Shown here in pieces: positions 1 to 60,938 of a stretch of 64,000 nucleotides of DNA (position 1 is the stretch's first letter; the number at the start of each line of letters is the position of its first letter). The stretch is taken from sequence record MT446421.1, one strand, 5' to 3'. The notes under the pieces were generated by a model. That model ran no database searches. It worked only from the letters and a program-made list of their open reading frames with translations, and was not told the origin of the DNA. This stretch comes from Escherichia virus TH55. Made by a program: the position numbers and the translations under genes.

Positions 1-240
1 AAATTCATCACCAAAAATAAGACCGGTTCCATTACGACTATGGAAAGAAAATCCAGTTCCATCGATAGTACTAAATTCCGTCACAACATTTGCTTCCATC
101 TTGGTGACTGAAAACTCTTTGGTAGTAATCAAATCAATGATAGAGGTTCCTTGCTGGTTCAAAATGCAACCGGGCATACCGACATGTTTAAGGAAGCCAT
201 CTAAATCTTTAATGCAATAACTCTTTCCAATTTTAAACAT
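1..240 (-). CDS. hypothetical protein, 3' end cut by window edge
   Basis: ATG at 238-240 preceded by GAGGA; minus frame open to position 1 (MFKIGKSYCIKDLDGF...). Confidence 0.45.
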   Translation of the reverse strand, partial: MFKIGKSYCIKDLDGFLKHVGMPGCILNQQGTSIIDLITTKEFSVTKMEANVVTEFSTIDGTGFSFHSRNGTGLIFGDEF

Positions 241-247
241 AATATCC

Positions 248-508
248 TCATTCAAATCGGATGGTTGAATTCTTGAACAACAAACCAGAACAAACAGTTC
301 CTTCAACTTTCTTACCAGTTGGACCCACGGCCGTAAAGCCTGTGTGTTGGAAATCATCTTTACCACAAGAGAACCAATTATATCCGGTGATTTGGATTTG
401 CTCATAGCCGTTTGCATCTAATACACGAATGGCGTTATCTGCATCAGTACAACCAGCTAATGAAACTGCCAGAACCAGCGCAGCAATAGAACGATTAATG
501 TATTTCAT
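248..508 (-). CDS. putative lipoprotein
   Basis: 86-aa ORF; N-terminal signal peptide with lipobox LAGC. Confidence 0.55.
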   Translation of the reverse strand: MKYINRSIAALVLAVSLAGCTDADNAIRVLDANGYEQIQITGYNWFSCGKDDFQHTGFTAVGPTGKKVEGTVCSGLLFKNSTIRFE

Positions 509-514
509 AATTTC

Positions 515-691
515 TCACTTAGTCAGCAGGTCGTAAAAACCGCCATTAACATGTTTGGGAGCCGAGACTAACCGAACAGCCAGCCGATGACAATCAGGAC
601 AAACATCATTATCTCTTTCAGAGATTTTCTTGATTTTTTCGTATTCTTTCGCGCAGTCATCAGATTGGCATTTGTAATCATAAAGTGGCAT
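515..691 (-). CDS. FmdB-like zinc-ribbon small protein (58 aa)
   Basis: Not in ORF track (<60 aa); MPLYDYKCQSDDC...CPDCH CxxC/CxxC pattern; fills gap between neighbours. Confidence 0.45.
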   Translation of the reverse strand: MPLYDYKCQSDDCAKEYEKIKKISERDNDVCPDCHRLAVRLVSAPKHVNGGFYDLLTK

Positions 692-9564: not shown

Positions 9565-9798
9565 TTAAACTACTGGGGTAGGCGTAAACATCGCCGCGTT
9601 CTTAGTTCGCCAATCAGCTGCACTAGACGCTACGGTGACATAAGCGGCCTTTTCGGAAGGAAAAGTCTGATAGTGTGCATTTGCAATACGATGCTCATTT
9701 GAATAGATTTCAAACGGAACAGATACTTCAACACCTTTAACTTCTTTACCTTCACCAGCTGGATGCGTAAAGGTTTTGATATTAACGAAACCACCCAT
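9565..9798 (-). CDS. soc: small outer capsid protein Soc
   Basis: 77 aa; VNIKTF...HYQTFPSEKAAY matches recalled T4 Soc; TATAAATA late motif upstream. Confidence 0.85.
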   Translation of the reverse strand: MGGFVNIKTFTHPAGEGKEVKGVEVSVPFEIYSNEHRIANAHYQTFPSEKAAYVTVASSAADWRTKNAAMFTPTPVV

Positions 9799-9829
9799 AA
9801 TTAACTCCTTTGTTGTTTAATTACGGGTG

Positions 9830-9837
9830 TATTTATA
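9830..9837 (-). promoter_or_regulatory. T4-type late promoter motif TATAAATA upstream of soc
   Basis: Exact TATAAATA on minus strand about 32 nt upstream of soc ATG. Confidence 0.55.
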
Positions 9838-10358: not shown

Positions 10359-10443
10359 TATATTTTTCCTTATCAATTCATGTTATTTTGTATGTTAATT
10401 ATATCATATTGGTTTGAAGCATAAATACACGGAAGGAGGATAT

Positions 10444-10641
10444 ATGCTCAAACTATCTAGTCTAATTCAAGCCATCAAAGGCAGTCGTAAGCGAACGATT
10501 CTGGTCCTTTCGATACTCTGTTTAGTTCTACTCTGGAACTTCGTTGTTGCCCCTGTTGCATTGACACATGGTGTTATATTACCAGTCATTGCACTCGAAT
10601 CAGTTGTAGATATTTTACTGGCATTAATCGGCCTTATATAG
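10444..10641 (+). CDS. small hydrophobic protein on plus strand
   Basis: ATG 10444 preceded by GGAAGGAGGA; two hydrophobic helices; only plus-strand candidate, in the 56-61 gap. Confidence 0.35.
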   Translation: MLKLSSLIQAIKGSRKRTILVLSILCLVLLWNFVVAPVALTHGVILPVIALESVVDILLALIGLI

Positions 10642-11788: not shown

Positions 11789-12007
11789 AGTTTCCTCATT
11801 TCAATGGCCCCGAAGGACCATTATACTGTAGGTTTATCGTCTTTATTCTTACGCTTTTTTGATGGGATTTGTTCAGGGCCTTTATTGACAACTGCCCCGG
11901 AAGTGGTACCTGTTGCGATATTAGTTGGGTTTCCACCTGCATCACCGGCAGCCATATCTTCGTTGATAAAATCTTTGAATGTTTTCATAACACCCCCTTT
12001 CCGCTAT

Positions 12008-12199
12008 TTATACAACGAAGATAGCTTTATCACCATTTGCATCAGTCACTTCATAAGTGTCTTCATGATACAACGGAATAATCCAGGTAACACCATCATC
12101 AGCGATAACATGGATTGCTTCTTGGTCTTGCGACACGATTTCATATTCTTCAAAAATCTGGAAGACCGAAATCTTAGAGCCCGTACACATTGCACTCAT
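12008..12199 (-). CDS. hypothetical protein
   Basis: 63-aa acidic ORF. Confidence 0.4.
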   Translation of the reverse strand: MSAMCTGSKISVFQIFEEYEIVSQDQEAIHVIADDGVTWIIPLYHEDTYEVTDANGDKAIFVV

Positions 12200-23130: not shown

Positions 23131-23826
23131 TTAATCTTGGAATTCGTGGCTAGAGCCTTGTTCCATTGCAATCACATAGCTTGCTTGTGTGCCTTCAAAC
23201 TTCGTAGCAAATTTATCATCTTTCGCCCAAAGCATAACACGGTAATCGGCCGGAATCATTTTCATGTTCAGTTTGTTAATGATAAATTTAAACGCTGCAT
23301 CACCTTCGTAGTCGCCGCACACCAGGGAATACAATGGACGCGCTAACTCTTTATCTTCGAGCTGATTATAACCATGGATAACAATCTTACCGTCTTTGTT
23401 GGTGATTGCAAAAGTATCCAGAGACAAACCACCAGCCACACGCAGAAGCTGCTGCAGGTCACTACCTTTCAGGTCGAAGATAACCTTAGCTACCGGGAAA
23501 GGAATCTTCTTAGCAGGGAACACGATAGTGCTCGGGTCTGCTGCAGGCCAGTGAATCGTTGAACGTTGGTCTTTGATAATGATGTTTGATGCGTCTTCAG
23601 CCAGAGATACTTCAGCTTGGTCAGTTACCAGGCTAAGAATACTTAAGAAGCCGTTCAAGTCATAAATTGCAGCTTCAAAGTCAATTGTATCATTGATTTC
23701 GGCTTCGCCGTATGACGCTCCAGTTACGGAACGAGTCAGGATGGTATTACCTGGCTTAAGCATAATGCCAGAGTAAATGGAAGTGAAGTTTTTCAGAACT
23801 GTGATAGTGTCTTTAGAGAATTTCAT
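23131..23826 (-). CDS. 45: sliding clamp gp45
   Basis: 231 aa; colinear with recalled T4 gp45. Confidence 0.9.
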   Translation of the reverse strand: MKFSKDTITVLKNFTSIYSGIMLKPGNTILTRSVTGASYGEAEINDTIDFEAAIYDLNGFLSILSLVTDQAEVSLAEDASNIIIKDQRSTIHWPAADPSTIVFPAKKIPFPVAKVIFDLKGSDLQQLLRVAGGLSLDTFAITNKDGKIVIHGYNQLEDKELARPLYSLVCGDYEGDAAFKFIINKLNMKMIPADYRVMLWAKDDKFATKFEGTQASYVIAMEQGSSHEFQD

Positions 23827-28688: not shown

Positions 28689-28940
28689 TTAATCCTTGGG
28701 AGTTAACTCAATTGTAAAATATAGATTAGCATTATCTACATGATAACGGTAATCAACGTTATTATCCGGTGAAGTAAATTCCAGATTCCGGACGTTTAAA
28801 GGGTCGATATCAATTGGAAGACCTTTTATGTCTCGCAGATAAAGTTTAATGAAATATGGGAGCGCAGTAAAGTCTTCCTCGATTTTATCTAAAAAATCGG
28901 TAATATCAAATTGATGTTCCATATAAAAAATCCAAATCAC
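28689..28940 (-). CDS. hypothetical protein
   Basis: 83-aa ORF; 5' end overlaps gene 55, start uncertain. Confidence 0.45.
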
Positions 28941-29463
28941 CTTCTTTATCTTTGGCGCTCTTATCAGACCCTGGCGCTTTAACTAAAGAGGATTCGTACT
29001 GTGTCATTTTGTCATAGATGTCCTGGATAAATGTTTCATCAGCCAGAGCCACCATATCGTCATCACGTGAATCATACACGTTATGGACGAAGTAGCTATA
29101 TTTCTTTGCCATTTCTTTACGTTCTTTTTTGATACGCTGAACGAAAGCATTGAAGCAAGCCATTGTTATGTAAGCATGTGGATTATCGTATTTTGTTTCG
29201 TCGAAGTTGTGAAGACCTTTTATTGCGGCCTCAATTCCGTCTGCAATCATTTCTTGCTTCCAGGATTGGGTATATCCGGAGAAGTTGAAACGTTTGCTAA
29301 GACCTTCGGCTATAAGCATAATTGCCAGACCAATAACGTCGTTCTGGCGAATAATTTTATTCGGGTCGGTGTTCGCATTCAGCTTCTGTTTCCACTCCGA
29401 AATAGCTTTCAGAAGCTCTTTATTATTTACATAGTTATTCTTGGTTAATTTAATTTCGTTCAT
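28906..29463 (-). CDS. 55: late-transcription sigma factor gp55
   Basis: 185 aa; NYVNNKELL...[36 protein letters not shown] matches recalled T4 gp55. Confidence 0.9.
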
Positions 29464-30617: not shown

Positions 30618-30689
30618 GATATATTCCTCAGTCTCATTAAATTAAAATTTTATTATCCTAGGGTCATTATACCATGACCCCGTTGGTTT

Positions 30690-35026: not shown

Positions 35027-35496
35027 TTTAAACTCTTTCTAAGCTGCTTCTTAAATGAAGCCATTAATTGTGTTTTGGTGTCAGATTCATTATAAGTCAT
35101 ACCATTCAAAAGCATTTCCCGAATCATTTCTTCTTTCCCCAGACGACCGAACTCTTTGGCTTTGTCTGTTACAAAATTGGGGTGAATATTGTTTTCGGTA
35201 TAATCAGATTTCAGATAGACAAGCAAACTCTCTAACCATTCCAGGTAGTCAACATCGCGACTTTTCAGACCCGAACGGCTGAACTTATGCTTCATTTGTC
35301 CTTCTGTCCCATTGCACAGATTGCATAGTAACCCGCGAACCTTACCAGCTTTTGGCCCGTTCAATTCGTGGTCATGGTCAAGATGGTTGGCCTGAACATC
35401 GGAGTCCAAATCACGGTGGCAAATTGGACACTTACCAGCTTGTGCATCATAAAGTTTTTGTTTTTCTTCTTTGTATAATTTGCCAGTCAACAACAT
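35023..35496 (-). CDS. 49: recombination endonuclease VII gp49
   Basis: 157 aa; zinc-binding CPICHRDL...HLDHDH...CNLCN. Confidence 0.85.
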   Translation of the reverse strand: MLLTGKLYKEEKQKLYDAQAGKCPICHRDLDSDVQANHLDHDHELNGPKAGKVRGLLCNLCNGTEGQMKHKFSRSGLKSRDVDYLEWLESLLVYLKSDYTENNIHPNFVTDKAKEFGRLGKEEMIREMLLNGMTYNESDTKTQLMASFKKQLRKSLK

Positions 35497-35531
35497 AATA
35501 AACCCTTACCATTATTAGATAAGGGTATTTA

Positions 35532-35708
35532 TTAAATCTTATAAAACGCGCGGTGTAACCGTTTAAATTGACGAATCATCTTTTTAGTAGGACGAGTATA
35601 CAATCCTACACAGGTGGCCATAAACTGGTCGGTAGGACTTCCTTTAATAAGAAGTTTCCAGACCTTGACACCATTTAACTTTTCGGTATAGACTAATGCA
35701 GTTTTCAT
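35532..35708 (-). CDS. small basic protein, PTKRQIR family (58 aa)
   Basis: Not in ORF track; ...RPTKKMIRQFKRLHR; ATGA overlap with upstream stop. Confidence 0.4.
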   Translation of the reverse strand: MKTALVYTEKLNGVKVWKLLIKGSPTDQFMATCVGLYTRPTKKMIRQFKRLHRAFYKI

Positions 35709-45848: not shown

Positions 45849-46232
45849 TTACTCTAGTGTTAACAGATACTTAGTCTGAAAGAAAACTCCAACGATATCG
45901 TCCAGAGTCGATTGAATAGCCTTAGGTACAACTTTATAGACTCTTTCCGAGCTTTTAATCATTTCATCTAAAAACAAAATTGTATCTTTCGGCAAGTCCG
46001 AGGCGGACGGTAATGCAGCTTTGTATTGTTTCCCGCTGTAACCTAACCATTGCTCACTGAACTGGTCGAGTGGACCTTGGATTTCTGTGAAGTAGAAATC
46101 ATAAGCTTTATGGCGGGCGTAACTTTTGGTTTCAAGATGGGCGGATTTAAAATAAGCCAAAGAGACTAACAACCACCCAATATATGAATCCACCTCAGAC
46201 CCACGACCCGTTACGAAATCATCAAATTTCAT
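45849..46232 (-). CDS. hypothetical protein (rI.-1 position)
   Basis: 127-aa ORF downstream of rI. Confidence 0.5.
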   Translation of the reverse strand: MKFDDFVTGRGSEVDSYIGWLLVSLAYFKSAHLETKSYARHKAYDFYFTEIQGPLDQFSEQWLGYSGKQYKAALPSASDLPKDTILFLDEMIKSSERVYKVVPKAIQSTLDDIVGVFFQTKYLLTLE

Positions 46233-46515
46233 CTTCCAATTTTACCTTCATTAATTTAGCGTATTCGACTGCAGCAGCACGGCCATCAATTTGACATGTG
46301 ATTTCATTTACACATTGACTCTTATTGTTCCATTCAGTTTTAATAAAAGCCCAAAATTGTTCGGACTGCTCGACGCTGGGTTCTTTGAATTGCGAATAGA
46401 TTTGCATCGCACTATCTGCATACTGGGTAAATTTACCATCTGTCGCAGAGGACATATTTGGGCCTAAACAGCCCATTAGTAATAGACTTAGAGAAAGTCC
46501 TCGAATAAGGTCCAT
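46222..46515 (-). CDS. rI: lysis-inhibition regulator RI (antiholin)
   Basis: Trimmed to ATG 46513-46515 (AAGGAG SD), 97 aa; signal-anchor plus C-terminal region resembling recalled T4 RI. Confidence 0.7.
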   Translation of the reverse strand: MDLIRGLSLSLLLMGCLGPNMSSATDGKFTQYADSAMQIYSQFKEPSVEQSEQFWAFIKTEWNNKSQCVNEITCQIDGRAAAVEYAKLMKVKLEDEI

Positions 46516-46589
46516 AAAGGACTCCTTATTGTTGGTCATGATTACGCTTTGCAGCCTTAACATAGCGGAATACTAGTTAGTAACTGTAT

Positions 46590-46865
46590 TTATAATCTTT
46601 TAAATTTGAAACAATACATTGCAAATAAATCAGAAAAATGTCTATCAACCCATATTCTTTGCACTGGACTAGTCACAGTCAGCATATAATGTGATTTTTG
46701 TAAATTTATTCCATTTTTATTCGGGCATTCTTTATTAACAGAATGGTACGTGCTTGCTACTATTTCAATTTCCCTTTCATATCTCTCGCTATCTGTTTGT
46801 GTGGGAATAAATGCAATTCCAGCAATAACAAAAATAGAGATATACGTCCAAACCTTGTATACCAT
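46590..46865 (-). CDS. membrane-anchored protein
   Basis: 91 aa; N-terminal TM helix. Confidence 0.45.
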   Translation of the reverse strand: MVYKVWTYISIFVIAGIAFIPTQTDSERYEREIEIVASTYHSVNKECPNKNGINLQKSHYMLTVTSPVQRIWVDRHFSDLFAMYCFKFKRL

Positions 46866-51966: not shown

Positions 51967-52014
51967 TTTATATTCCATTGTTTGGTTAATAAAATCATTA
52001 TACAACCTTTTTAG

Positions 52015-52431
52015 TTAAGCGTACACAGCTTTCCCATAGTATTTGTACCAAGCAGGCTTTTGAGAAATTTTCTCATTCAGTCTAGCTTGACTGATTTCAA
52101 TTGACCAGATTGATGGTTGATAATCATTCTTCCATTCATCAGGAATATCAGTTAAATCTTGGGTAGAAATATCTTTTATGTTAAACCCTCGCTTTAAACA
52201 TTCCGCAATAAGTTCTTGATGCCGGTTTTTAAGGAACAAAAGCTTATCATAAAAGAAGGTGACATGACCAGTCCCTAAAAGGAAAGATGATGGGATTTTA
52301 AAGTCAGAAACCTTTTTACCATTTTGTACATGCTTACGAACAGCACCAAACACGCGAGGAAGCTCACGATATTCAGCCATAAGATGTTGGTCAGCGAGTT
52401 CAGATACCAGGGTTAAGTTAATGCGAGTCAT
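52015..52431 (-). CDS. denV: endonuclease V (pyrimidine-dimer glycosylase) DenV
   Basis: 138 aa; N-terminal [35 protein letters not shown] near-identical to recalled T4 endo V. Confidence 0.9.
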
Positions 52432-52457
52432 GTTTGTTCTCCGTAGTTGATAGGGTC

Positions 52458-52486
52458 ATTATAACCCTATCATTTGGAGATGTACA
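52458..52486 (-). promoter_or_regulatory. early-type promoter upstream of denV
   Basis: -35 TGTACA 52481-52486, 17 bp, -10 TATAAT 52458-52463 in loop of GATAGGGT/ACCCTATC inverted repeat. Confidence 0.55.
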
Positions 52487-52756
52487 TCATTTCTTAGAGT
52501 ATTGACCCATAAGTTTAGCGATATCACCCAATTTCTGATTAAACAAATAATCCACTTCTTTGCCAGATTTATCTACAATTTGCCACTGACCATTTCCTTT
52601 GTTGCCAAAGGTCCAATCACCGACTTTAAATGAAGTTCCATTAACTTTTTTAATAGAAGTAAACTCAAAGCCTTCTTTCTTAGCTAAAAATGCCATGCGG
52701 CTTTCATCTGATTCATTTAATACAGATTCAGCCAAAAATTCTTGATACGTTTTCAT
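52487..52756 (-). CDS. internal protein (IP) with capsid-targeting sequence
   Basis: 89 aa; N-terminal MKTYQEFLAE capsid-targeting motif. Confidence 0.65.
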   Translation of the reverse strand: MKTYQEFLAESVLNESDESRMAFLAKKEGFEFTSIKKVNGTSFKVGDWTFGNKGNGQWQIVDKSGKEVDYLFNQKLGDIAKLMGQYSKK

Positions 52757-52764
52757 ATTTTACC

Positions 52765-53256
52765 TTATTTGTATGCGTCAAAAGTTCCGGTGCGGAAAGT
52801 TTCAATAACTCGTTTAGCCCGGTTCGGAGTCTGGACTTTATACCATCTTGAGTCTGCCAGTTCCTTGGCAGCCGCTTCCCATGATTTAGCCTTCAGCAAT
52901 CGCATACCCTTAGGAAAACCCGCAACACCAGCAACACCCATCTGGAATACCATATTAATGAGTGCACAACGACGAACTTCATCAAGTACATCATAAACAG
53001 GTTTTAAGACAGGATGTCTCAAGATTCCGGCTTTAGCCTTTTCGACCGAACGGTTAAACAGTGTTTCGGCTTCGTGTTGGGTTATACGACCATTACAGAC
53101 GCGACCCATGAGCTTATCGAGCTCGGCGCGAGCAACATCTTTAGATGGGTTCTTAGTTATCAGTTGCCCGATGCCAATGGTCCAATAGCCTTCAGTATCT
53201 TTATACAAATCCAACTTACAACCTTCATCTATGCGTAACATTTCGAATATATTCAT
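52765..53256 (-). CDS. e: lysozyme (endolysin), T4 e-type
   Basis: 163 aa; near-colinear with recalled T4 lysozyme ([12 protein letters not shown]...catalytic E11/D20/T26). Confidence 0.95.
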
Positions 53257-53258
53257 AA

Positions 53259-53278
53259 TACCCCCTTATATAGGGGTA
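53259..53278 (-). promoter_or_regulatory. RBS-sequestering hairpin at lysozyme start
   Basis: Inverted repeat UACCCC/GGGGUA with 8-nt loop; SD AAGGGGG in 3' arm; AATAAATA overlaps 5' arm. Confidence 0.5.
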
Positions 53279-53282
53279 TTTA

Positions 53283-53741
53283 TTATCCGAAAATTTGAGT
53301 CATTACCTTGTACATCGATTTGCCCATCACATACTGCCATTGACTCGGTTTAATCAGAGCAAATGCATCGAACTCTGGAACCGAACTACCATCCGGGAAG
53401 GTATGATAGGCAGAGCATTTACTATGTCTAAACTGCTCATGCTCAACCGGAACCGTGTACAAAAACAGGTGAAGATTTTTGTTATCTGAATAACGGAACT
53501 CACCCAGGTCCTTTAAGAATGCCGGGTCGTATTGGGTAAACCCGGTTTCTTCTTCGGTTTCACGGATAGCCGCTTCAATCGGGGATTCACCAGCTTCAAC
53601 ATGGCCCTTAGGGATGTCCCATTTATGTGCAGGCATACCTGGTTTACGAGAACAAGTCACACGACCCATGAATAACTCTTTATCTTCAGTCATGAAAATA
53701 ATGCCAGCAGATAATTCTTTCACCTTGTTTTTCTTACTCAT
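53283..53741 (-). CDS. nudE: Nudix hydrolase NudE
   Basis: Trimmed to internal ATG; Nudix box GHVEAGESPIEAAIRETEEETG. Confidence 0.8.
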   Translation of the reverse strand: MSKKNKVKELSAGIIFMTEDKELFMGRVTCSRKPGMPAHKWDIPKGHVEAGESPIEAAIRETEEETGFTQYDPAFLKDLGEFRYSDNKNLHLFLYTVPVEHEQFRHSKCSAYHTFPDGSSVPEFDAFALIKPSQWQYVMGKSMYKVMTQIFG

Positions 53742-53970
53742 CGTCACGTTTCCATGATTGGTTAAAAATATCACTCATTAAAAATTCAAGTCTATTTTCC
53801 AATGAAGGGCTTTCACTACTAGAAACTTGAACCATGTAGTCGGAAATAGGTCGGAACATATCCAAGTCAGTTTCTAAATCATCTTTGATTTTCTCTTCTG
53901 ATGTACCTGTATCATAGGAATACAGATAAGAATCACATGACTCTGATTTAATATAAATTGCAATACTCAT
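53734..53970 (-). CDS. hypothetical acidic protein
   Basis: 78-aa ORF. Confidence 0.45.
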   Translation of the reverse strand: MSIAIYIKSESCDSYLYSYDTGTSEEKIKDDLETDLDMFRPISDYMVQVSSSESPSLENRLEFLMSDIFNQSWKRDDE

Positions 53971-54554
53971 TTACGGCATTCCTCAATAAAGGAGTTCAAT
54001 GTATTTTTCTTAGTGATATCGTCATATACCTTTTTAACTTTAGAAATACGAAAAGGTACTTCAATAACCATAGTCCATAAAAATGATGCAATAAGTCCAG
54101 CAAGAGCAGTAGAAAAGCACGCACCCATTACAGCTACGGGTGCTTCATTTTTGCCTGTCAAGAAAAACCACAGGAATGGTAAAAATAAGATTCCAGCCCA
54201 GGCATAAAACCTGGAACAAATTAACTTATCAAATTCATCACTCCAGGTACGAAATCCATATTTCTTGCTATAAGAAATTAATGGGTCGGGTGTCTGTTCT
54301 TTGAGTGGTTCTGGTTGATACCCATTAATGATATATCCCATTTTATATTCCTTAATTAAAAGCTCTTTCACATGACGATTGCATCGCGACCAATCAACAT
54401 TTTCCACCTTGATTCCTTCATCACCATCATCAAGGTTCGCCCAATATTTTTTGGTAATCATAAATTCATCTCTTGATACAATTATACCTGCATTTTCCGA
54501 CCGACGGATGAAGTTTACATCAACACCCATACAACCCGGCTCATAAAGGGCCAT
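53967..54554 (-). CDS. membrane protein, FI-x-EC-K/R tail family
   Basis: 195 aa; TM helices; C-terminus ...NSFIEECRK. Confidence 0.5.
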   Translation of the reverse strand: MALYEPGCMGVDVNFIRRSENAGIIVSRDEFMITKKYWANLDDGDEGIKVENVDWSRCNRHVKELLIKEYKMGYIINGYQPEPLKEQTPDPLISYSKKYGFRTWSDEFDKLICSRFYAWAGILFLPFLWFFLTGKNEAPVAVMGACFSTALAGLIASFLWTMVIEVPFRISKVKKVYDDITKKNTLNSFIEECRK

Positions 54555-55240
54555 TACCAGCCCTCCATAGGGAATTCCAGATATACTTGAGCATTAACGC
54601 GGATTTCATTTGTAATCTTTTTAACACGGTCGGTATTACGAGACACACGACCAAACCAGCGCCAACCGTTACTTACTGCGCGAGAACCTGTATGCCATGT
54701 CTGCCAATCAAACTGGAGCAACGTGCGGTCAGGAGCATCCCACTTGGCTAATTCATTGGACTCAATTTTTTCCAGAACTTCTTTATGCCACTGACGATAG
54801 ATAAGTTCGCCTTCAGGAATCTGACTAAATTGTGCAGTTCCGGTTGCAAAATAAGTAGGACACACATCAGCGTTAACAAGACCAAGAATATGTTCAGAAT
54901 GGTAACGAGGATTATCATAATCAGGTTGCCCTGCAGTAATAAAGTGTTGACCAACCGGAATATCCGGGCGTGGTACATCGTCATGGTGATAACCTGGGAT
55001 AGCAGGATACCAACCAGGCATCAGCATATGAACCCGAGAATCAAATACAACCTGGTCGGTGTTCCAATCATCCGGCAGACTCATAATAAAGCTACGAGTA
55101 ATAGGACCGCCATTGTCAAAAGCGAAAGCCAATGAGCTGTTGAAGAACATAGTTTCGTTTTTGATTTTATCATTAGAAATTTTACCAGCGAAACTGCCTA
55201 CTGCATGAGCTTGAGAATTAAAAGTTTTTGGACCGTTCAT
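54554..55240 (-). CDS. hypothetical protein
   Basis: 228-aa ORF; GAGGA SD; His/Asp-rich, no confident family call. Confidence 0.5.
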   Translation of the reverse strand: MNGPKTFNSQAHAVGSFAGKISNDKIKNETMFFNSSLAFAFDNGGPITRSFIMSLPDDWNTDQVVFDSRVHMLMPGWYPAIPGYHHDDVPRPDIPVGQHFITAGQPDYDNPRYHSEHILGLVNADVCPTYFATGTAQFSQIPEGELIYRQWHKEVLEKIESNELAKWDAPDRTLLQFDWQTWHTGSRAVSNGWRWFGRVSRNTDRVKKITNEIRVNAQVYLEFPMEGW

Positions 55241-56280: not shown

Positions 56281-56511
56281 TTAAATTTCAGCAGCAGAGA
56301 TATTAGATTCATCTATCATCTCAGAGGCGGACCCCTTAACGATAGGAACCAATTTGCCATAGAGGTCTTCATTATAAGGGTCGTTGATACAGTGTGCATC
56401 TTCAAAACGAACACCGTAATCAGACTTCTTATAAACGAGACCGTAAATCTTTGTAAACTTAGCACGACTAATTTTTACAGGCTCATCAGTCATTGGGGCG
56501 TAATACCACAT
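56281..56511 (-). CDS. hypothetical protein
   Basis: 76-aa ORF with own promoter motif. Confidence 0.45.
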   Translation of the reverse strand: MWYYAPMTDEPVKISRAKFTKIYGLVYKKSDYGVRFEDAHCINDPYNEDLYGKLVPIVKGSASEMIDESNISAAEI

Positions 56512-60867: not shown

Positions 60868-60909
60868 TTTATTATCCCGTTTGTTTATTTGGTAACTCAG
60901 TATGGGATA

Positions 60910-60938
60910 ATTATACATTATCCCACCTGGAAGTAAAA
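60910..60938 (-). promoter_or_regulatory. early-type promoter
   Basis: -35 TTTTAC 60933-60938, 17 bp, -10 TATAAT 60910-60915. Confidence 0.5.

Follow-up and report, generated by a model that had tools for sequence, protein, structure and literature searches.

The 26-nt spacer between nudE and the lysozyme gene e of Escherichia virus TH55 was analysed within a 64,000-nt stretch of sequence record MT446421.1, referred to here as the window. The spacer very likely carries the Gaprivervirus orthologue of the translational-control leader of T4 gene e: a hairpin that would bury the lysozyme Shine-Dalgarno sequence (SD) in long early transcripts, and an overlapping late promoter whose transcripts would start inside the hairpin and leave the SD free. 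The anatomy of the junction, its folding thermodynamics, its conservation and the presence of genes for a late sigma factor and a sliding clamp were established here and carry this assignment. Gene e, nudE and the spacer are all read on the minus strand, as are the neighbouring genes. The first-pass annotation had placed the feature at 53257-53282; this interval is exactly the nudE-e spacer, and only its strand had to be corrected to minus.

Genes and relatives

Gene e (52765-53256, minus strand; start codon 53256-53254) is the regulated gene and encodes a T4-type endolysin of 163 amino acids (aa) with 69% identity to T4 e lysozyme and a match to the endolysin family phrog_7 (8e-27). The same-strand gene upstream is nudE (53283-53741, minus strand; stop codon 53285-53283), a Nudix hydrolase gene (phrog_1185, 5e-74), and its transcripts must enter the hairpin. 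The gene order nudE-e matches that of T4. On the minus strand the junction reads GGA-TAA (the nudE stop, 53285-53283)-TAAATACCCCTATATAAGGGGGTATT-ATG (53256). The 1.1 kb around the element were 100% identical to Escherichia phage UPEC07 (MW250787.1; Straboviridae, Tevenvirinae, Gaprivervirus) and 88-97% identical to about 35 other Gapriverviruses, among them VR7, SP18, VR20, VR25 and VR26.

Hairpin and predicted Shine-Dalgarno burial

Folding with RNAfold gave a hairpin with a 9-bp stem, including one U.G pair (U53272.G53265), that ends on the base preceding the AUG. The 5' arm AAUACCCCU (53272-53280), which is the anti-SD strand, pairs with the 3' arm GGGGGUAUU (53265-53257) across the loop AUAUAA (53266-53271). 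The 3' arm adjoins the AUG and holds the SD core GGGGG (53265-53261), followed by a 4-nt spacer, UAUU, up to the start codon; the longer motif AAGGGGG (53267-53261) covers the last two loop bases and part of the 3' arm. A hairpin UACCCC-(8 nt)-GGGGUA with the SD AAGGGGG in its 3' arm and a late-promoter-like sequence over its 5' arm had been proposed in the first-pass annotation. The proposed pairs proved to be the inner part of the 9-bp stem, the GGGGG core forms most of the 3' arm with AA as loop bases, and the late box described below does overlap the 5' arm, by 4 nt. RNA folding of the leader, suggested there as a check, returned a stable hairpin (-12.1 kcal/mol when isolated) and a paired SD in long RNA.

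In a 61-nt context the fold reached -18.4 kcal/mol (z = -3.3), a stability equalled by none of 200 dinucleotide shuffles. The SD duplex with the 3' end of 16S rRNA was calculated at -11.9 kcal/mol. Within an RNA spanning -100 to +40, the SD had a mean probability of being unpaired (P unpaired) of 0.014, each of the five guanines being at or below 0.06 (approximately 99% paired). In RNAs starting at 53270-53272, which are devoid of the anti-SD strand, P unpaired of the SD core was 0.72-0.75. On thermodynamic grounds the SD is predicted to be closed in read-through RNA and mostly open in late RNA.

The minimum free energy fold also contained an optional outer helix (53241-53292, minus strand), predicted between UUUCGGAUA at the end of nudE (53292-53284) and UAUUCGAAA in e codons 3-5 (53249-53241), which would also enclose the AUG. 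This helix was not adopted as part of the element: being identical across Gaprivervirus and absent in other genera it has no comparative support, and ribosomes translating nudE would melt it. Rfam covariance models searched over 52000-55000 on both strands gave no match at E <= 1.

Late promoter box and late-transcription genes

The late-promoter box is AATAAATA (53277-53284, minus strand), an A(-13) variant of the T4 box TATAAATA that matches it at 7 of 8 positions. At its start the box shares two bases with the end of the nudE stop codon, and at its other end four with the beginning of the 5' arm. Counted from the start site, T4 late promoters occupy positions -13 to -6, and T4 relatives often have A or T at -13 (PMC1524935). 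Among 50 listed T4 late promoters, 32 were perfect and 9 carried A(-13), the commonest variant (PMC2988020). With the start site set 6 nt past the box, following the T4 geometry, the predicted +1 is A53271, the first loop base, at -15 from the AUG. A start there removes all nine of the nine pairs and would produce a late leader of 15 nt.

The search for cognate late machinery covered gp55 and gp45, and the window encodes both. A homologue of gp55, the late sigma factor and expected reader of the box, was found at 28906-29463 (minus strand; phrog_234, 4e-68), and one of gp45, the sliding clamp and activator of T4-type late transcription, at 23131-23826 (minus strand; phrog_223, 1e-78).

Comparative analysis of e leaders

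Loci for e were gathered from GenBank phages and IMG/VR, giving 28 distinct leaders from at least 9 Tevenvirinae genera: T4 and other Tequatroviruses, Dhaka-, Mosig-, Karam-, Jiaoda-, Kanagawa-, Kagamiyama-, Moon- and Gapriverviruses, and Cronobacter phage S13. The leader of a Gelderlandvirus (Salmonella phage S16) was looked at separately from this main set. Every leader examined had an SD-containing hairpin (-7 to -18 kcal/mol), a (T/A/G)ATAAATA box just 5' of or within the 5' arm (CTAAATA in S13), and a predicted +1 that strips most or all of the pairs. The sequence ATAAATAC was nearly invariant (27 of the 28 distinct leaders) while the stems varied: the cores are CCUUCU/AGGAGG in T4, CCUCCU/AGGAGG in Dhakaviruses and CCCCU/GGGGG in this phage, and the Karam and Jiaoda types use the stem CUCCUAUC/GAUAGGAG with the register shifted by one base. 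In the outgroups PspYZU05 and PX29 the structure was absent.

RNAalifold returned no structure on a MAFFT alignment of the 28 leaders, because MAFFT had put two stem registers (ATACCTCC and ATA-CTCC) into the same columns. The leaders were re-aligned to a covariance model seeded from a register-consistent subgroup. In this structure-aware alignment 86.5% of pair cells were canonical, compared with 40-58% when partners were slid by 1-3 columns; the alignment leans towards structure since it was fitted to the model. A double compensatory change was found at one pair only (U.A in 19 sequences, C.G in 2), together with 10 one-sided changes that keep G.U pairing. The compensatory change from U.A to C.G lies in the Gaprivervirus lineage and converts the SD from GGAGG to GGGGG. 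A search of IMG/VR for half-compensated intermediates (CCYC...GGRGG) yielded three contigs, all of them CCCC/GGGGG and too few to call intermediates avoided.

Within the genus, the 51-nt leader was 100% identical in 30 Gaprivervirus records, only one of which had at least 99% identity over the surrounding 1.1 kb. The sole leader variant in the genus has one extra A in the loop (TH54, TH57).

More divergent lysozymes were approached through the approximately 60 nt before the ATG in six IMG/VR contigs (L065, L066, L068, L084, L047 and L056). In four of these (L065, L066, L068 and L084), with lysozyme genes only 46-56% identical to that of this phage, the SD was fully paired. Several of the leaders carry CATAAATA or TATAAATA within the 5' arm, and the box-in-hairpin design seems to reach further than the phages covered by the 2010 survey.

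The same leaders bear on the strand of the structure. The pattern scan for terminators flagged CCCCTTATATAGGGG followed by TATTTATTAT on the plus strand (53262-53276), as if the inverted repeat ended antisense transcription, and T4 does transcribe both strands at some sites (PMC2988020). The T-rich tail of that match, however, is merely the conserved late box read on the complementary strand, every neighbouring gene lies on the minus strand, and terminator-like matches in the region (7, against 4.2 +/- 2.1 in shuffled sequence) are not above expectation. The 28 leaders contain 17 sense-strand G.U pairs, among them U53272.G53265, and all of these become A.C mismatches in antisense RNA. Compared with the antisense fold, the sense fold was more stable in 17 leaders and less stable in 6, with a tie in the other 5. 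The wobble pairs and this strand asymmetry point to a structure in sense-strand RNA rather than to a DNA palindrome or antisense element; the plus-strand call was rejected on these two tests, and an antisense terminator is very improbable.

The loss of GGAG from the SD raises a further idea. RegB is a phage endoribonuclease that cuts GGAG in SD sequences. The SD of this phage, AAGGGGGU, has no GGAG motif, in contrast to T4 and the other genera. Conceivably, though it must be called an unlikely proposal, the paired U.A to C.G change kept the silencing hairpin while making the late lysozyme mRNA immune to RegB, within a design more widespread or more often reinvented than the 2010 survey indicated. 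If so, a single compensatory event at the junction would, on a small scale, have traded one post-transcriptional control off against another.

Window statistics

Compact hairpins were counted in the minus-strand RNA of the 64-kb window in 28-nt frames at a free energy of -11 kcal/mol or lower. There were 67, approximately one per 950 nt, with the e frame in the top 0.27%. In a set of 134 genes predicted by a simple open reading frame (ORF) plus SD heuristic, e ranked sixth for SD burial, and about 5% of the genes were buried as deeply. The e hairpin alone is only moderately unusual.

The late box gives a different picture. Over both strands of the 64 kb there are only 8 copies of ATAAATA, where shuffles gave 22.1 +/- 4.5 (approximately 2.8-fold depletion), and AATAAATA has only 3 copies. 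Seven of the 8 ATAAATA copies are on the gene-sense strand, and 7 of 8 sit 16-31 nt upstream of an ORF start; the depletion suggests selection against stray late promoters. Five genes of the heuristic set have a late box. With burial defined as P unpaired < 0.02, the SD or AUG was buried in 4 of these 5 and in 9 of the 129 others (Fisher p = 2.6e-4). Chance does not account for a hairpin combined with a late box in the right position, and it is the late box, not the hairpin alone, that makes the arrangement non-random.

These counts also bear on whether the palindrome is a chance product of an A+T-rich spacer, one that takes in the SD by accident and has no regulatory role. The abundance of compact hairpins and of equally buried SDs in the window is what such a view would draw on. 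Against it, at least 9 genera share the structure, with stems that differ and a compensatory change among them, the leader stays constant within Gaprivervirus while its flanks diverge, the box is correctly placed although its motif is depleted, and the orthologous T4 site offers an experimental precedent, as summarised in PMC3014915. A chance origin is accordingly given hardly any weight.

Many of the 67 compact hairpins look terminator-like, and the e hairpin itself has a G+C-rich core with four G-C pairs and sits right behind the nudE stop, ahead of the U-containing UAUUAUGAAUAUAUU. It could on these features be mainly an intrinsic (Rho-independent) terminator or 3'-end stabiliser for nudE and the early unit, with SD burial incidental. 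Yet the scan called no terminator on the sense strand of the spacer, and only 4 of the 8 bases past the stem are U. Other genera keep the hairpin although they have GGUCCUAUGGAC past the stem, without a U run, and their 3' arm is always the SD. In T4, moreover, early transcripts are documented, in the summary of PMC3014915, as extending into e. A primary role in termination is improbable.

Proposed mechanism and points against it

Under the preferred reading, a T4-type translational-control leader, transcripts initiated upstream and reading through nudE would carry both arms of the hairpin. The hairpin would pair the lysozyme SD (GGGGG) with the anti-SD strand (CCCCU), so that 30S subunits would be blocked and lysozyme would not be made prematurely. 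After the onset of replication, gp55/gp45-dependent RNA polymerase would use the AATAAATA box overlapping the 5' arm and begin at about A53271 in the loop. The resulting short late mRNAs, devoid of the anti-SD strand, would expose the SD and be translated. For this phage we infer by analogy with T4 the early nudE-e read-through, the late start near 53271, the translational silence of the long RNA and how strong the repression is. Genes on the minus strand follow one another contiguously and the spacer lacks a called sense-strand terminator, but the upstream sequence showed no strong early promoter. The first-pass annotation had suggested that the T4 mechanism is preserved here; the orthology of e, SD burial, box placement, conservation and the gp55 and gp45 genes all speak in silico for this.

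The element would prevent premature endolysin synthesis from early read-through transcripts and time production of the lysis enzyme to the late phase. This is classic translational control by choice of transcript 5' end, and no new principle is added here. The results favour adding a late promoter and a regulatory hairpin to the annotation of the nudE-e junction in Gapriverviruses, phages now being isolated for therapy. They further indicate that the design tolerates an SD other than GGAG and a single A(-13) promoter, and the clean natural compensatory pair supports the T4 structure.

A related possibility is that the hairpin is real but leaky, and serves mainly to couple e to nudE translation at a low early level instead of acting as an on/off switch. 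The nudE stop (53285-53283) lies 2 nt before the stem, which begins at 53280, and a terminating ribosome could open the outer pairs; loss of the first 3-5 nt of the 5' arm weakens the hairpin from -12.1 to between -9.5 and -5.1 kcal/mol, and the AUG is largely unpaired. The C4/G4 core is nevertheless beyond the estimated reach of the terminating ribosome and should survive, and pure coupling would have no need of the conserved late box. In T4 the nudE stop directly precedes the extended stem, and long transcripts still give approximately 100-fold less lysozyme according to PMC3014915. Coupling as the main function is rather improbable, marginally less so than termination.

Several observations weigh against a T4-like switch in this phage. 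Some leak by translational coupling is possible for the positional reason just given: the terminating ribosome is estimated to open about three outer A.U pairs, leaving approximately -9.5 kcal/mol. The AUG has a P unpaired of 0.70 (0.05 in T4) and, since it lies outside the main stem, repression could be weaker than in T4 unless the outer helix forms. One late box is present where T4 has two; a second late promoter in the loop, as in T4, was considered and rejected, TATATAAG having 3 mismatches to TATAAATA. T4 late promoters favour A/T between box and start site (PMC2988020), and the segment here, CCCCT (53276-53272), is not A/T-rich, which suggests a weaker promoter. It does not exclude function, because T4 e (CCTTC) and gene 49 of this phage (CCCTT) have similar segments. 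No convincing early promoter was found upstream, the sole intergenic candidate being a sigma-70-like sequence at 56568-56540 (9 of 12 matches), and the same strand has two weak terminator-like sites before e (54143-54121 and 55823-55805). Formal covariation is thin, with one double compensatory pair, because SD function constrains both arms; the shuffle control for covariation gave 2/500, a figure that is not a probability. For this phage and its genus the support is in silico only.

Other elements in the window

Two other genes of the window repeat the box-and-hairpin arrangement and serve as internal controls for the e leader. The gene 49 orthologue (endonuclease VII, phrog_423) has a leader of the same design (35494-35538, minus strand), in which AATAAATA (35533-35526) runs into the hairpin ACCCUUAUC/GUAAGGGU that buries the SD. 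It ranked first of the 134 genes for SD burial and was the sole other window match of the e-leader covariance model (21.5 bits). Before a soc-like gene (77 aa, phrog_1715), the leader at 9798-9837 (minus strand) has TATAAATA (9837-9830) and then the hairpin CACCCGUAAUUAA...UUAAUUAUGGGUG, in which the AUG (P unpaired 0.001) and not the SD is buried.

Further TATAAATA boxes precede an rI-like lysis-inhibition gene (phrog_1246; 46222-46594, minus strand) and a 55-aa ORF (phrog_1823; 11821-12012, minus strand), the latter with the SD AAGGGGG, as in e. The only plus-strand copy of ATAAATA stands 16 nt before a 65-aa hydrophobic ORF (10421-10641, plus strand; phrog_2024, unknown function). The GGAGG SD of this ORF is also predicted to be buried (P unpaired 0.019), and the ORF is a candidate late gene of opposite orientation within an early region.

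A hairpin with no late box nearby, UAUGGAGGGCUGGUAAUGGCCCUUUAUG (54542-54569, minus strand; -13.7 kcal/mol), buries the SD of a 195-aa ORF starting at 54554 (P unpaired 0.002). In the MW250787.1 annotation this ORF (window 53967-54554) bears the product name 'portal vertex protein' and a 76-aa ORF (window 56281-56511) is named 'major capsid protein'. Both names are implausible for small early-region ORFs and are probably annotation-transfer errors. Window position x corresponds to position 170539 - x of MW250787.1, and the first approximately 535 window bases map past the end of that 170,004-bp record; this overhang (window 1-535) would reflect either a circular permutation relative to MW250787.1 or a near-identical genome.

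Stem-loops with a TATAAT-like -10 sequence in the loop, such as GAUAGGGUUAUAAUGACCCUAUC, recur on the minus strand (52447-52474, 1295-1322, 30659-30686, 1856-1883 and 60901-60928), one of them coinciding with a sigma-70-like match at 52486-52458. The PeSL promoter-stem-loop cassettes of T4-like phages (PMC2839356, PMC4122927) have a similar appearance.

Comparison with known systems

The e hairpin shares with Rho-independent terminators and PeSL cassettes (PMC2839356, PMC4122927) a compact, G+C-cored stem-loop in a short intergenic spacer. It differs from them in having neither a sense-strand U tract nor a sigma-70 -10 sequence in the loop, and in that the SD of the following gene makes up its 3' arm.

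The control itself is already known: the mechanism was demonstrated for T4 in 1986, and a 2010 review (PMC3014915) reported it as conserved among T4 relatives. In T4, early transcripts of e are repressed by a hairpin over the SD and AUG, and the repression is relieved in transcripts from late promoters that lie within the structure (McPheeters et al. 1986, NAR 14:5813, as summarised in PMC3014915); by the same summary, early transcripts extend into e and the long ones give approximately 100-fold less lysozyme. T4 e, soc, 49 and I-TevI are presented as the classic cases, and segB, I-TevII/III and Aeh1 mobE as late genes in early units under the same control (summaries in PMC3014915 and PMC2988022). 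Like the leader studied here, those of T4 soc, 49 and I-TevI have a late box beside or within the 5' strand of a hairpin that buries the ribosome-binding site. They differ in serving other genes with non-homologous leaders, and the soc hairpin buries the AUG, not the SD.

Uzan & Miller 2010 (Virol J 7:360, Fig. 5A; PMC3014915) report leaders of this kind as predicted in closely related T4-type phages, where the DNA for the 5' strand in each case contains a late promoter, and list Aeh1, 44RR, 25, 31 and FelixO1 as having no e-leader structure. The present element belongs to the same class and leads to the same inference. The GGGGG/CCCC variant has no mention in the available text of the review, where the presence of a Gaprivervirus in Fig. 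5A could not be confirmed, and a literature search on VR7 and related Gapriverviruses gave nothing relevant to the e leader.

The closest counterpart is the T4 e leader. Both elements lie at the orthologous nudE-e junction, have a ATAAATAC box running into the 5' arm and a 3' arm made of the SD followed by UAUU-AUG (GG(T)ATT-ATG in both), and have a predicted late start inside the structure. The core hairpins are of nearly the same stability (-12.1 kcal/mol here and -12.3 in T4). The spacer is 26 nt here and 37 nt in T4, and the loop 6 nt here and 8 in T4. T4 has two consensus TATAAATA boxes, whereas a single A(-13) box is present here. The core is CCCC(U)/GGGGG in place of CCUUCU/AGGAGG, so the SD has no GGAG, and the T4 stem extends over the AUG, which here stays outside the main stem. 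The suggestion in the first-pass annotation that the mechanism is kept with a different sequence holds for the loop and the stem core, and in that the second late promoter of T4 has been lost; it does not hold for ATAAATAC and GGUAUU-AUG, which are shared with T4. What sets the element apart from the T4 leader is its single A(-13) box, its shorter spacer, its GGGGG SD free of GGAG and its AUG outside the stem.

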